A stretch of 64,000 nt of DNA from Planctomicrobium piriforme (GTDB lineage: Bacteria > Planctomycetota > Planctomycetia > Pirellulales > UBA1268). Of the stretch, positions 38,601-64,000 are shown piece by piece; position 1 is the first letter of the stretch; each line of letters opens with the position of its first letter. A program made the translations under genes and the position numbers. The stretch is from contig CAMBPQ010000002.1 in the NCBI GenBank assembly GCA_945869735.1, positions 23,276-87,275 on the forward strand. Reading direction: 5' to 3'. The notes beneath the pieces were generated by a model. It made no database searches. It was not told the DNA's origin and saw only the letters and a list, made by a program, of their open reading frames with translations.

Positions 38601-39036
38601 GAGAGCGCATTCGACTTACGTGGATCGCCGGCTCGGGGGCGACAAAAGTCGCTGCTGCGCGGTCCTGCGGATTGTGGCTGGGGCGAGGATACGCCCCAGG
38701 CTCCTCGAGCGTTCGCCGACCCCCTCACCTCCCGTCAGGAAGTCCCAAGCGCAAGCGCGGGGAATCCGGGAAGCATCGATTTGATACCGGATTGGTTCAC
38801 CGGCGGTGACATGCTCGCCGCCGGAGGATTTTGCTACAGGATGCTCGGGTGGCCGACTGGGGAATATCTCGTGAGTCGCAAAGATTCCCCGGCGTCTGCG
38901 CGTGCCCCCGACCGGCTCCTCACGATCAAGAATCGGTTCGATCATCCGTGCGGCTTGCCTCCCGTCAGGAAGCCCCAAGCACAACCGCGGGGAATGCGGG
39001 TAGCACCCCGCCCCGCTCCACAGCTGATGCGATCCA
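38601..39036 (+). mobile_element. Composite element: module A copy 5 interrupted by a REP-flanked module B
   Basis: A left part 38601-38732; REP 38731-38765; B core ~38775-38935; REP 38961-38995; A-like right end CCGCTCCAC...GATGCGATCCA to 39036. Confidence 0.72.
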
Positions 39037-53276: not shown

Positions 53277-53507
53277 AGCACCGGTGCACCGTGGGACTCC
53301 GGGTCGCAGCTGAAACGGTGCCGGATTGGTTCGCCGGGGGTGGCATGCTCGGCTCCTCACGATCGGGAGGTTTCAGCATCTGGAGGATGCTGCCCGGCAG
53401 CCAAGTGACACCTCGGCTGTCGCTTCGGCTGCCTCAGCCGGCAACGGCCACGAGGGCGTTGCAGGCGTGAAGTCAGCATCCCGGCTTCTGCGCGTGCCAC
53501 CCCCGGG
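53274..53507 (+). mobile_element. Rearranged module B copy with an A-type left end at the sulfatase TAG stop
   Basis: TAGAGCA, 9 nt, CGTGG; GTGCCGGATTGGTTCGCCGGGGGTGGCATGC; CCCGGCTTCTGCGCGTGCCACCCCCGG. Confidence 0.7.
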
Positions 53508-54230
53508 TCAGCCCTCGCCCAGATAGGCGTCGCGGACGCGGCGGTCGGCAGCGAGCTCGGTGCCTGTGCCCGAGAGCGTGATCCGTCCCGTCTCGAGCAC
53601 GTAGCCGCGGGCCGCGAGTTTGAGAGCGGCGCGGGCGTTCTGTTCCACGAGCATCACGGCGATGCCTCGCTCCGTGAGCGACGCGATCACCTCGAAGACC
53701 TTCGCGACGATCAAAGGTGCCAGGCCGAGTGACGGCTCGTCGAGCAGGAGCAGCCTCGGCCGTCCGACGAGGGCCCGGCTAATGGCCAGCATCTGCTGCT
53801 CCCCGCCTGAGAGCGTGCCACCGGGTTGCTCCAGCCGCTCGCCCAGCACCGGAAACAGCCCGCAGGCCTCATCGATGTCGGTGCGGAGCCGGCCGCGGTC
53901 GGTCTGCGTGAACCCGCCCAACTCAAGGTTTTCCCGAACGGTGAGCCGGGGAAAGATCCGGCGGCCCTCCGGCGCATGGCCGATTCCCAGCCGCATGATC
54001 TGATCCGGTTTGAGGCCGCCGAGCGGGCCGCCAGCAAACCGAATGCTCCCAGCGCGGGTCGGGACCACGCCTGAGATGGCCATCAGGAGCGTCGTCTTGC
54101 CGGCGCCGTTAGCGCCAATGAGCGCCACCAACTCGCCATCGTCGACGTCGAGCGACACCCGGTCAACGGCCCGGATGGGGCCGTATCCCGCCTCGAGATC
54201 ACGGATTTCCAACAGCGGCATCGTGGTCAC
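53508..54230 (-). CDS. livF: LIV-family ABC transporter ATP-binding subunit
   Basis: GANGAGKTT, PEGRRIF, LSGGEQQML, LDEPSLGLAP. Confidence 0.93.
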   Translation of the reverse strand: MTTMPLLEIRDLEAGYGPIRAVDRVSLDVDDGELVALIGANGAGKTTLLMAISGVVPTRAGSIRFAGGPLGGLKPDQIMRLGIGHAPEGRRIFPRLTVRENLELGGFTQTDRGRLRTDIDEACGLFPVLGERLEQPGGTLSGGEQQMLAISRALVGRPRLLLLDEPSLGLAPLIVAKVFEVIASLTERGIAVMLVEQNARAALKLAARGYVLETGRITLSGTGTELAADRRVRDAYLGEG

Positions 54231-61423: not shown

Positions 61424-62071
61424 ATGAACCAGTTGCGACGCCTGTACCGCAGCATGATGAGGAGCACCCGCCGGAAGGCGGGGCTGATCCCACGCCAGTT
61501 CCGCAGGGACCGTGTGCTCTTCATCCACGTACCCAAATGCGCCGGCTCGGCCTTCCTCGACGCCTACCTCGGCTTTCAGACCGGCCACGTGACGGCGCAG
61601 GACTACCATGATGCCGATCCCGACTTCTTCGCGGCGGCCTATGTGTTCGCGTTCGTCCGCAACCCGCTCGCTCGGTTCGTCTCGGCCTACAACCACATCC
61701 AAACCGACGACCTCTGGCCTGTCCTACCCGCAGTGCGGCTGCTCGTCGACCGTCAGGGGGCCACGGTCTCGGAGGTCGCGGCGTCCCTGCGGCCCGACTC
61801 GGAACTCCTCCGCATGCCGTGGTTCACGCCGCAGCACACGTTTCTCGAGGTGCGGGGTCGGTGCGCCGTGAACCGTGCGTTCAAGACCGAATCGTTCGCG
61901 GCGGACCTCGAGGTCATCACGGCCGATGTTCCGATCCGGCTTCGCCTCTCCACCGAGGTCAACCGCCGCGGCCGGGAGCAAACGCCTCCTGACGCGGGGC
62001 TCTCCGCCGAGTCGGTGGCCAACCTCCGCCGCATCTACAGCCGCGACTTCACGCTCTTCGGCTACTACTGA
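61424..62071 (+). CDS. Sulfotransferase family 2 domain protein
   Basis: FIHVPKCAGS (PAPS-binding loop), FVRNPLARFVSAY, IYSRDFTLFGY. Confidence 0.85.
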   Translation: MNQLRRLYRSMMRSTRRKAGLIPRQFRRDRVLFIHVPKCAGSAFLDAYLGFQTGHVTAQDYHDADPDFFAAAYVFAFVRNPLARFVSAYNHIQTDDLWPVLPAVRLLVDRQGATVSEVAASLRPDSELLRMPWFTPQHTFLEVRGRCAVNRAFKTESFAADLEVITADVPIRLRLSTEVNRRGREQTPPDAGLSAESVANLRRIYSRDFTLFGYY

Positions 62072-62148
62072 CAAGGCACCCAAAAAGTCTGGTCCATCCC
62101 ACTCCTGTTCGGCACGATGGGGGCTTGAGTGGTGGGTCGGAGATTCTT

Positions 62149-62512
62149 GATCGTGAGGAGCCGGGTGTGGCACGCGCAGAAGCCGGGAATGTTTGCGACT
62201 CACGAGCTATGCCCCGTCGGCCAGGCGAGCATCCCGTAGCAAAATCCCCAGCGCCGAGCATGCCACACCCGGCGAACCAATCCGGCACCGTATCAATGCC
62301 GCCCGTATTCCCCGCGCTCGCGCTTGGGGCTTCCCGACGAGAGGCGGCGTCTCCGGATCGTGAGGAGCCGGGTGTGGCACGCGCAGAAGCCGGGAATGTT
62401 TGCGACTCACGAGCAATGCCCCGTCGGCCAGGCGAGCGTCCCGTAGCAAAATCCCCGGCGCCGAGCATGCCACACCCGGCGAACCAATCCGGCACCGCAT
62501 CAATGCCGCCCG
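62149..62512 (-). repeat. Two tandem module B units (207-bp period) separated by a REP-like unit
   Basis: GATCGTGAGGAGCCGGG at 62149 and 62356; near-identical cores; REP at 62307-62334. Confidence 0.9.
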
Positions 62513-62531
62513 CATCAGCCCTTGGGCGCAT

Positions 62532-64000
62532 TCACCCAGAATGTGCCACAGGCTCCGGAAAGCGGTCCTGGATTGCCTGCACGGAGAGAGGCTCCGTCCG
62601 CATGCCCTCCATCGCGAGGACGCAGGCCTCGGCCGCCGGTAGCGTGGTGATGCAGGGGACACCGTAGAGCACGCTCGCGGCCCGGATCCGGCCTTCGTCG
62701 GTCCGCGCCCCCTTGCCCCGCGGTGTGTTGAAGATCAGTTGCACTCGGCCGTCGATCAGATGATCGATCAGATTCGGATGACCCTCCTGTAGCTTCTTCA
62801 CCACCTCGACGGCGATACCGGCCTCGGTGAGCGTCCGCGCCGTGCCCGACGTCGCGATCAACTCGAAGCCGAGCGTCACCAGCCGCCGCGCCAGGCCCAC
62901 CATCGCCTCCTTCGCCTGGGTGCTCGCCACGCTGAGGAAGATCCGGCCCTGCTCGGGAAGCAGGATGCCGGCCGCGATCTGGCTCTTGGCGAAGGCGATG
63001 CTGAAGCGGTCGCTCACGCCCATCACCTCGCCCGTGCTCCGCATCTCGGGACCCAACGCGATGTCGACCCCGGCGAACTTCACGAACGGAAACACGCTCT
63101 CCTTCACGCTCACGTGGGCGGGCAACGGGTCGGCCGTTATACCCTGCTCCGCGAGGCTCAGGCCGGCCATCACCTTGACCGCCACCTTCGCCACCGGCAT
63201 CCCCGTCGCCTTGGCCACGAAAGGCACCGTGCGGCTGGCCCGCGGATTGACCTCGATCACGTAGATCGCCTGACCGCTGGTCCCGTCAACGCCGGTCTCC
63301 TTCTTGACCGCGAACTGCACGTTCATGAGGCCGATGACGCCCAGGCTTTTCGCCAGCCCCGTCGCCGCTGCCTTGATTCCGGTGATCACCTCCGGCGACA
63401 GGCTGTGCGGCGGGATGCAGCAGGCTGAGTCACCCGAATGGACGCCCGCCTCCTCGATGTGCTCCAGCACGCCGGCCACGATCACGTCCTTCCCGTCGCA
63501 GATGCAGTCGACGTCGACCTCGATCGCATCCTCGAGAAAGCGGTCGATGAGGACGGGCTGCCCCTGCGCGACGATAAACGCCTCGGCGACGTACCGCTCG
63601 AACTGCACGTGGTCGTAACAGATCTCCATGGCCCGGCCGCCGAGCACGAAACTCGGCCGCACGAGGCTCGGAAAGCCAATCCTCGCCACCTCGCGGCGGG
63701 CCTGTTCGAGCGTCCGTGCGATGCCGCTGGCCGGCTGCTTGAGGCCGAGTCGGTCGAGCAGTTCGCGGAACTGCTCGCGGTCTTCCGCCATTTCGATCGT
63801 ATCGACGGAGGTCCCGATGATCGGCAGGCCGGCGGCATGCAGCGCCCGGGCGAGGTTGAGCGGCGTCTGCCCGCCGAGCTGCACGATCACACCATCGGGC
63901 TCGATGCGATCGGCGATGTTGAGCACGTCCTCGCAGGTGAGTGGCTCGAAGAAGAGCATGTCGCTCGTGTCGTAGTCGGTGCTGACGGTCTCTGGGTTGG
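62532..64000 (-). CDS. carB: Carbamoyl-phosphate synthase large subunit, 5' part outside the window
   Basis: QLGGQTP, RPSFVLGGRAM, EEAGVHSGDS, EVNPRASRT, EMRSTGEV, MGS domain. Confidence 0.97.
   Translation of the reverse strand, partial: NPETVSTDYDTSDMLFFEPLTCEDVLNIADRIEPDGVIVQLGGQTPLNLARALHAAGLPIIGTSVDTIEMAEDREQFRELLDRLGLKQPASGIARTLEQARREVARIGFPSLVRPSFVLGGRAMEICYDHVQFERYVAEAFIVAQGQPVLIDRFLEDAIEVDVDCICDGKDVIVAGVLEHIEEAGVHSGDSACCIPPHSLSPEVITGIKAAATGLAKSLGVIGLMNVQFAVKKETGVDGTSGQAIYVIEVNPRASRTVPFVAKATGMPVAKVAVKVMAGLSLAEQGITADPLPAHVSVKESVFPFVKFAGVDIALGPEMRSTGEVMGVSDRFSIAFAKSQIAAGILLPEQGRIFLSVASTQAKEAMVGLARRLVTLGFELIATSGTARTLTEAGIAVEVVKKLQEGHPNLIDHLIDGRVQLIFNTPRGKGARTDEGRIRAASVLYGVPCITTLPAAEACVLAMEGMRTEPLSVQAIQDRFPEPVAHSG

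Follow-up and report, generated by a model that had tools for sequence, protein, structure and literature searches.

The repeat locus and its genes

At about 62 kb of the window, the 64,000-nucleotide stretch analyzed here (C2:23276-87275 of genome G000), a sulfotransferase-family gene on the plus strand and carB on the minus strand converge with their stop codons facing each other, and a tandem repeat sits between them. The genome of origin, G000, is a 95%-complete metagenome-assembled genome (MAG) of 3.17 Mb in 128 contigs, with a GC content of 66.7%. The direct repeat runs on the minus strand (62138-62308 and 62345-62515), its two units measuring 171 nt each, being 94% identical and following one another with a period of 207 nt. 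We refer to the hairpin-forming part of the unit as module B and to the REP-like unit that accompanies it as R. From the carB side towards the sulfotransferase-family gene, the features are as follows:

62503-62531, minus strand: degenerate REP-like R remnant ATGCGCCCAAGGGCTGATGCGGGCGGCA, between unit 2 and the carB stop codon (62532-62534)
62356-62502, minus strand: module B tandem unit 2 (the 5' unit in the orientation of the element), a long imperfect hairpin with outer stem GCCGGGTGTGGCATGC/GCGTGCCACACCCGGC and inner stem GCCGGGGATTTTGC/GCAAACATTCCCGGC
62297-62347, minus strand: full REP-like unit R, CCGCCTCTCGTCGGGAAGCCCCAAGCGCGAGCGCGGGGAATACGGGCGGCA, separating unit 2 from unit 1
62149-62295, minus strand: module B tandem unit 1 (the 3' unit in the orientation of the element), with the same derived outer-stem changes as unit 2
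62075-62148, minus strand: linker from unit 1 to the stop codon of the sulfotransferase-family gene

The 36-nt "spacer" of the tandem is part of the full R at 62297-62347, and the only intact part of the R remnant at 62503-62531 is the tail typical of B-linked R units (...GCGGGCGGCA). The hairpin cores of the two B units differ at 5 of 160 positions (97% identical). For the minus strand of unit 1, folding gives a single long imperfect hairpin with a minimum free energy (MFE) of -87.9 kcal/mol and a z-score of -4.9 against dinucleotide shuffles, compared with only -63.2 kcal/mol and a z-score of -1.3 for the plus strand; the minus strand of unit 2 (62345-62515) likewise forms a single long hairpin, of -95.1 kcal/mol. 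A preliminary description of this DNA had proposed the tandem duplication with its 207-bp period, the outer and inner stems, which occur in both units and are used by the minus-strand fold, and the setting between convergent genes, found here and at a second locus at 53.3 kb; all of these stand. Approximately 55 nt (CCATCCCACTCCTGTTCGGCACGATGGGGGCTTGAGTGGTGGGTCGGAGATTCT, approximately 62102-62155) between the sulfotransferase-family gene and unit 1 are absent from the orthologous junction of the sister species G022, where B comes directly after the shared linker.

Other copies in the window

Two more loci of the window, both on the plus strand, contain B-related sequence:

38728-39001, plus strand: R-B-R copy inside a larger composite repeat, with B at 38777-38924
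53311-53372, plus strand: mini-B, the 5' arm fused to the 3' tail (CATGCTCG joined to GCTCCTCACGATCGGGAG)
53374-53480, plus strand: module X, a low-copy repeat, 107 nt long here and also present on contigs C14, C24, C59, C92 and C94
53479-53509, plus strand: lone 3'-arm fragment of B, CCCGGCTTCTGCGCGTGCCACCCCCGG, abutting the stop codon of the convergent gene

The match of the 171-nt unit at 38764-38934 (plus strand) was confirmed as a B copy, and its 3' arm still has the ancestral form GTGCCCCCGACCGGC. At 53.3 kb the arm matches were confirmed as well (53311-53353 and 53479-53509), but the locus is not the hairpin with a replaced interior that it had been taken for. It is a mosaic of a mini-B, module X and a separate 3'-arm piece, so that the two "arms" that appear to pair come from different fragments. 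In the mini-B the entire interior of the hairpin has been deleted at a GCTC microhomology, and deletion of a whole hairpin between microhomologies is the classic fate of long palindromes. Module X is about 100 nt long, has small hairpins of its own and is 92 to 95% identical at C14:23869, C24:59, C59:14191, C92 and C94; at all three loci checked (C14, C24 and C59) it lies directly 3' of a B copy.

A high-copy family docked to a REP-like unit

Where the preliminary description counted four copies, BLAST of the unit against G000 gave 179 matches, 104 of them near-full at 80 to 91% identity, so the genome holds 104 near-full copies. They are found on most contigs and amount to 0.65% of the DNA of G000. 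The repeat breaks the assembly: contig ends lie no more than 300 nt away from 61 of the 179 matches.

When the copies were aligned with their flanks, nearly every B was directly preceded, in the same orientation, by R, a 51-nt sequence (TTGCCTCCCGTCAGGAAGCCCCAAGCGCGAGCGCGGGGAATGCGGGTGGCA), and a second R usually followed on the 3' side too. R itself has 386 matches in G000, 247 of them nearly full, and most are solitary; being high-copy and mostly solitary, it behaves as a REP-like unit. Its core (CCCGTCAGGAAGCCCCAAGCGCGAGCGCGGGGAAT) has a 7-bp stem, an AA bulge and a CGAG loop, with a CGTC-like tag in front. R sometimes forms arrays of alternating orientation (for example, at locus k5 of G022), and it was also seen embedded within another MITE-like repeat. 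Around B, the R units are direct repeats and the polarity of B relative to R is always the same, without the alternation of REP units that characterizes BIMEs. The 5' junction is constant, R ending in ...GGCA and B starting with T[C/T]GAGACGG, whereas the 3' end of B is variable. The left boundary of homology falls at R positions 1 to 12 in 76 of the 104 copies and at the 5' edge of a 433-nt composite subfamily in 16 further copies; the right boundary is either B position ~150 to 160 or the end of the second R. The architectures seen were R-B-R, R-B, B-R-b, R-B-R-b and R-B-R-B. Arrangements of the type B-R-B or B-R-b occur at 26 places, with periods of 207 to 211 nt and 226 to 230 nt, and include six tandems of two full copies. 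As in REP/BIME systems, there is a high-copy, short, palindromic intergenic unit placed in regular arrays with other motifs.

The 433-nt composite is a non-coding repeat with at least 30 copies at 95 to 100% identity (for example, C3:58119-58551, C113:3560-3992, C20:6022-6453 and C57:8998-9428). It has sharp ends (GGTCCTTCGGGG...CCCCGGATGGACC) with an imperfect terminal inverted repeat (GGTCCTTCGGGGAACTTTGTGGG...CCCATGAAAACCCCGGATGGACC), contains B(6-167), R and b(1-31), and causes many contig breaks. No ORF and no obvious target duplication were found in it. A multi-kilobase insertion sequence (IS) containing B was rejected, the only larger surrounding repeat being this ORF-less composite.

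Using genes called by a GC3-based ORF filter, 93 of the 104 copies are intergenic. Most of the 11 copies that appear to overlap a gene do so at one end of a long ORF call, and this crude filter may over-extend ORFs. Among the copies for which both neighbors are known, 34 are located between convergent genes, 4 between divergent genes and 32 between co-directional genes; the latter split 16:16 by orientation relative to transcription, favoring neither. REPs and MITEs usually show this pattern, in which gene 3' ends are tolerated and promoters are avoided. The even split together with the 3'-end preference speaks against any function dependent on the sense of the mRNA around B.

Distribution among relatives

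By BLAST, B was present in 19 of 24 congeneric genomes, with identities from 96% (G022) down to ~70% (G005 and G011) and a copy number that ranged from 0 to more than 100. Outside the family, a BLAST sample of 16 genomes yielded one marginal match (G035, E = 4.6e-4). A covariance model was built from an alignment of 12 species and searched against 201 genomes of the order; it found B in 11 of them, all within the family of the window and belonging to four genera, and none in the ~185 genomes of the other families of the order. An exact scan for the 23-nt 5' arm over one genome per GTDB species returned 49 stretches, nearly all from MAGs labelled Pirellulales, Planctomycetaceae or Planctomycetota, many of them from lake metagenomes. 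B is a family-specific repeat of freshwater Pirellulales.

Some of the 5'-arm loci (L056, L060-L066 and others) come from third-party-annotation (TPA) MAGs labelled "uncultured Candidatus Kuenenia sp.", and one from a Comamonadaceae bin. Judging by their repeat content, these contigs are probably mislabelled or misbinned sequence of the Pirellulales family.

Tandem B arrays were also found in the independently assembled G011 and G022. In G011 (locus L011, G011:C104:1-470) the tandem has a period of 229 nt, and the element that precedes B is a small palindrome, GGCAGGCTTGCAGCCTGCC, and not R, which indicates that the docking partner of B differs between species.

Pairing of the hairpin within and between species

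The preliminary description had pointed to a T:A to G:C double change in the outer stem as a compensatory swap. The difference does exist: pair B30-B133 is G:C in 87 of 101 copies (the consensus), U:A in 2, and U opposite C in 6. However, U:A is confined to the two tandem units at 62 kb and so represents one event, and at the orthologous locus G022 retains the consensus G in the 3' arm, which makes the change a derived one in G000. Within this genome, moreover, the outer stem is 93.0% paired compared with 92.6% in column shuffles, and RNAalifold on 101 copies did not recover the hairpin, within-genome covariation being negligible. As evidence of compensation, the swap alone is therefore weak; with pairing close to that of the shuffles, the within-genome set is uninformative, which leaves the comparison between species as the informative one.

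Four outer-stem changes separate the tandem units from the family consensus, all toward perfect pairing, from GCCGGCGGTGACATGC/GCGTGCCACCCCCGGC to the arms listed above for unit 2. Quasipalindrome template switching, established in Escherichia coli mutagenesis, can rewrite one arm on the template of the other in one step, and the four-change cluster looks like one such event.

Between species, hardly any variation is seen in the arms (C)CGCATTGGTTCGCCGGCGGTGACATGCTCG and CTGCGCGTGCCCCCGACCGGCTCCTCAGCATC, whereas inner stem and apical loop have been replaced without losing their pairing. Inner-stem replacements include ACTTTGC/GCAAAGT versus ATTTTGCG/CGCAAAAT and GGAGCC/GGCTCC versus GGAACC/GGTTCC, with GTTGAG/CTCAAC in G220. 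The outer stem has a variant with one extra nucleotide in both arms (G014 and G015) and another with a C insertion matched by an A-to-G change (the subfamily of G011, G001 and G012). For the covariation counts, 30 sequences representing 12 species were aligned with plain MAFFT, and the alignment was shuffled 500 times. RNAalifold returned the hairpin with 29 pairs; 97.0% of the positions were paired compared with 94.5% in shuffles, two-sided changes were seen in 9 pairs compared with 2.4, and the covariation score was 0.113 compared with 0.068, with none of the 500 shuffles reaching the observed value in any of the three measures. Sliding the partner columns by 1 to 3 positions reduced pairing to 35 to 47% and left 0 or 1 covarying pairs. 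Two wobble pairs, U.G (30 of 30 sequences) and G.U (29 of 30), are invariant. Two other alignments were left out of the counts: A2, made with the covariance model, was contaminated by weak reverse-strand matches, and A3, which covers more genera, has the replaced G220 stem one column out of register and was read by eye.

Pairing of the hairpin is maintained across species, and the proposal that the stem is the conserved part of the unit holds, since additional copies preserve pairing through two-sided changes. The element has a clear polarity, with covariance-model scores of 50 to 148 bits in the forward direction versus 22 to 38 bits in reverse. Nevertheless, the covariation is no proof of an RNA, both because template switching would mimic compensatory evolution and because the folding advantage of the element strand in G000 (-88 versus -63 kcal/mol) is absent from most other species.

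Gain and loss between sister species

At the carB-side site, the orthologous interval of G012 is empty, with the same convergent pair and stop codons ~30 nt apart. G022 has B there, and its contig ends inside B. Three congeners (G015:C32, locus L019; G014:C470, locus L020; G023:C46, locus L021) have a different large palindromic repeat, GGGGCTGCCCGTGCCCCGGAGCCGGCG...CGTCCGGCGACGGGGCATGGGCAGCCCC, at the place orthologous to ~62520, at the 3' end of carB, and in G014 this repeat is in tandem. The convergent intergenic site 3' of carB is a recurrent landing place for repeats.

The flanks of 20 G000 loci were queried in G022, and 13 syntenic intervals could be compared. Four loci (k0, k7, k9 and k19) had R-B(-R) in G000 and a solo R in G022, one (k16) had R-B-R-B in G000 and R alone in G022, and two (k2 and k15) had R-B-R in G000 and either no repeat or a different repeat in G022. 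At k6, G022 has a hairpin-deleted, "arms-only" B, the same kind of deletion as in the mini-B at 53.3 kb, and at several loci B was common to both genomes. At k7 the filled and the empty site differ by precisely one [B+R] unit (~207 nt). Both R units of k19 are composite: the upstream one combines the resident head with an incoming tail (GCGGACGGCA), and in the downstream one the head is incoming (GCCGCCCGACAGG) and the tail resident (GGGTAGCA). B at k0 is accompanied by these same incoming sequences at head and tail. Such chimeric R units point to a crossover inside the R core.

No target-site duplication was found at any of the filled/empty orthologous sites compared between G000 and G022. 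Genome-wide, the two R units around a B have an identity of 0.82 versus 0.78 +/- 0.09 for random pairs of R, indicating that the second R is not a fresh duplication of the first. Only the R upstream of B has the tail GGGTGGCA, and at three informative sites the boundary falls exactly at R...GGCA, which could indicate a site-specific enzyme. These comparisons have to be read in both directions, as recombinational deletion between the two R units would give the same filled/empty picture as insertion.

Search for a partner enzyme or a known RNA

Searches with PF01797 (Y1; RAYT/IS200), PF01548 (IS110) and PF07282 (TnpB) gave no match in the 95%-complete G000, and control genomes were matched. The absence of a transposase from a MAG of this completeness is weak evidence, since MAG assemblies routinely lose multi-copy IS. 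Of 61 family genomes, 12 have IS110 genes; the B-rich G000, G022, G193, G138, G220 and G097 are not among them, and the covariance model found no B near the IS110 genes of the family. With these protein families absent and IS110 not co-occurring with B, RAYT/IS200, IS110 and TnpB were rejected as partners. An IS200/IS605-derived PATE or omega-RNA was rejected likewise, there being no TnpA (Y1) or TnpB gene, and so was an IS110-type REP-targeting module of the ISPpu9/ssr9 kind, for which the genome has no DEDD transposase of PF01548.

Any autonomous B element would be expected to be bounded by the arm sequences GGTTCGCCGGCGGTGRCATGCTCG ... CTGCGCGTGCC..CCGGCTCCTCA. No autonomous IS with B termini was found in G000 or in the fetched loci, where it should be considered that MAGs often miss assembled IS copies. 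No coding IS containing B was found either.

The search of the whole window against Rfam at gathering thresholds gave 0 matches, and the best candidate by E value in the region 61950-62650 was isrG, at 15.9 bits against a threshold of 100. Scans of B for sigma-70-like promoters and intrinsic terminators found no motif. A small-ORF reading of the reverse strand was discarded, as the subfamilies are not alike in their indels and stem replacements.

Comparison with known repeat systems

The preliminary description called the element REPIN-like. In the broad sense of a dispersed, non-coding, hairpin-forming repeat this is correct, and B shares with the REPINs that depend on RAYTs (PMC3116915) its nature as an abundant dispersed hairpin of ~100 to 150 nt, found around REP-type sequences and evolving within the genome. 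In the strict sense it is not, as a REPIN consists of an inverted REP pair together with a RAYT and B has neither: the flanking R units are direct, so there is no inverted REP doublet, and the genome has no RAYT/Y1 gene. A REPIN was thus rejected, the arms of B being moreover unrelated to R.

The closest class is that of the REP/BIME mosaics of enterobacteria and pseudomonads (PMC3733652; PMC3333891). As in these, a short GC-rich REP-like hairpin (R, ~390 matches) is combined with other modules in regular mosaics, the arrays are intergenic at gene 3' ends, and they come and go between close relatives. They differ in that the partner of R is a 150-nt hairpin and not a linker motif, and in that the flanking R units are direct and not alternating. 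No dedicated transposase is known for the CGTC-tagged REP superfamily (PMC3733652), nor was one found for R or B, and R begins with CCCGTCAGG. Unlike in CGTC REPs, however, the CGTC of R is 6 nt from the stem instead of adjacent to it, and there is no RAYT.

The likeness to ERIC/IRU elements of Enterobacteriaceae and to Correia/NEMIS elements of Neisseria lies in the imperfect, non-coding intergenic palindrome of ~130 to 150 nt with tens to hundreds of copies, which forms a single long hairpin and has hairpin-deleted or insertion-bearing variants. B is without sequence or Rfam similarity to them. Correia elements, in addition, have TA duplications and IS-like terminal inverted repeats; for B, by contrast, no target duplication is seen, and its point of entry lies beside or within a REP unit.

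For the entry of a [B+R] unit at R, the best mechanistic analogue is ssr9 of ISPpu9, an IS110-family element of Pseudomonas putida. This small non-coding module is found alone in REPs, forms its own circle bounded by repeated boxes and needs the IS110 transposase (bioRxiv 10.1101/2025.01.17.633520). In contrast, neither G000 nor the other B-rich genomes have an IS110 transposase, and the crossover point in R appears variable.

B is a new family within the REP/BIME/ERIC-like mosaic repeats and is ordinary selfish DNA; by analogy, it resembles a foldback MITE or an ERIC element.

Spread and maintenance of B

Taken as a whole, it is likely that B is a non-autonomous, non-coding palindromic repeat of ~145 to 165 nt that is docked to R and is spread and lost by recombination between R cores. 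The differences of one [B+R] unit, the chimeric R units and the lack of duplications fit R-R recombination; with transposition that makes duplications, whether cut-and-paste or copy-paste, they are at odds. Either a [B+R] circle would integrate and excise, or an R-B-R donor would supply B by ectopic gene conversion, and the same exchange between R units, when unequal, or slippage, may generate tandem R-B-R-B arrays such as the one at 62 kb. The hairpin may be kept because its folded form, as single-stranded DNA (ssDNA) or RNA, is recognized or tolerated, or alternatively because template switching on the hairpin makes the arms match again and again, a second route with which the four outer-stem changes of the tandem units agree. 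Copies in 3' untranslated regions may incidentally affect mRNA ends, as REP and ERIC elements do. What speaks against this account is that B lacks this R in other species and yet has nearly invariant arms in four genera, which suggests that B has its own recognition by a putative factor.

Alternatively, B could be a classical MITE, mobilized in trans by a transposase that recognizes the arms as (sub)terminal inverted repeats, with R as a mere target preference; we regard this as unlikely. B is small, non-coding and multi-copy (104 copies of ~165 nt), and it has inverted repeats, namely imperfect arms (GCCGG-CGGTGRCATGC / GCGTGCC..CCGGC) located 12 to 20 nt inside the ends of the unit. These arms have stayed almost invariant in four genera while the interior was replaced, as happens with transposase binding sites, but no IS with B arms was found and G000 is without Y1, IS110 and TnpB. 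The constant 5' junction with R (...GGCA) would suit a defined terminus, but the 3' end is variable and the chimeric R of k19 puts the crossover within R, not at a fixed end. REP sequences are known IS targets (PMC1525189), and the ssr9 module of ISPpu9 in P. putida circularizes alone and sits in REPs (bioRxiv 10.1101/2025.01.17.633520); the IS110 genes of this family, nonetheless, are absent from B-rich genomes and never adjacent to B. The 433-nt composite, sharp-ended and 95 to 100% identical between copies, does indicate recent mobility of something in G000. With regard to target-site duplication B does not behave as a classical MITE, there being none at the filled/empty sites or in the comparison of the two R units (0.82 versus 0.78).

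Quite doubtful, too, is the more elaborate reading of B as a mobile cassette that has no transposase of its own, passes from one REP unit to another and has a hairpin selected as a folded ssDNA or RNA signal.

A functional structured RNA, either an independent small RNA or a 3'-untranslated-region module, whose hairpin would be under purifying selection and would have multiplied by hitch-hiking on REPs, seems to us very unlikely. Significant cross-species covariation with compensated indels is what such an RNA should leave behind, but covariation in a DNA palindrome can also come from hairpin-templated template switching. The two invariant wobble pairs (U.G in 30/30 and G.U in 29/30) and the polarity of the covariance-model scores speak in its favor, as does the stronger folding of the element strand in G000 (-88 kcal/mol, and -63 for the complement), an asymmetry that is missing, however, in most other species. 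The orientation of B relative to flanking transcription is unbiased (16 versus 16), it has no promoter-like or terminator-like motif and no Rfam relative, comparison of sister species shows copies freely lost, shortened or stripped of the hairpin, and the copy number varies from 0 to more than 100 among congeners, all of which argue against an RNA function.

That the 62-kb tandem is an assembly artefact of a repeat-rich MAG is extremely improbable: the repeat does break assembly (61 of 179 matches within 300 nt of contig ends), but the two units differ at 5 core positions and in their flanks (R remnant and carB stop on one side, full R on the other), G000 has at least six full-full tandems of the same architecture, G022 has B at the orthologous place, and tandems recur in the independent assemblies of G011 and G022.

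Significance of the B family

The biological value of the B family is modest. Its practical value lies in annotation and assembly, as B and R explain many contig breaks in lake MAGs, and the two fill convergent intergenic regions and could be mistaken for regulatory RNAs. The covariation between genera, with indels compensated in both arms, makes the family a test case for distinguishing selection on a hairpin from hairpin-templated mutational correction. Were the cassette reading true, B would be a structured module docked to REPs, with [B+R] units exchanged at the R core and a hairpin conserved in four or more genera of freshwater Pirellulales; its mode of mobilization, and possibly an RNA- or protein-binding function, would be new for REP/BIME systems. 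The filled/empty sites are a clean natural example of a long palindrome gained or lost together with one REP unit, leaving chimeric REPs and no duplication, and they bear on how REP/BIME mosaics that have no transposase grow.
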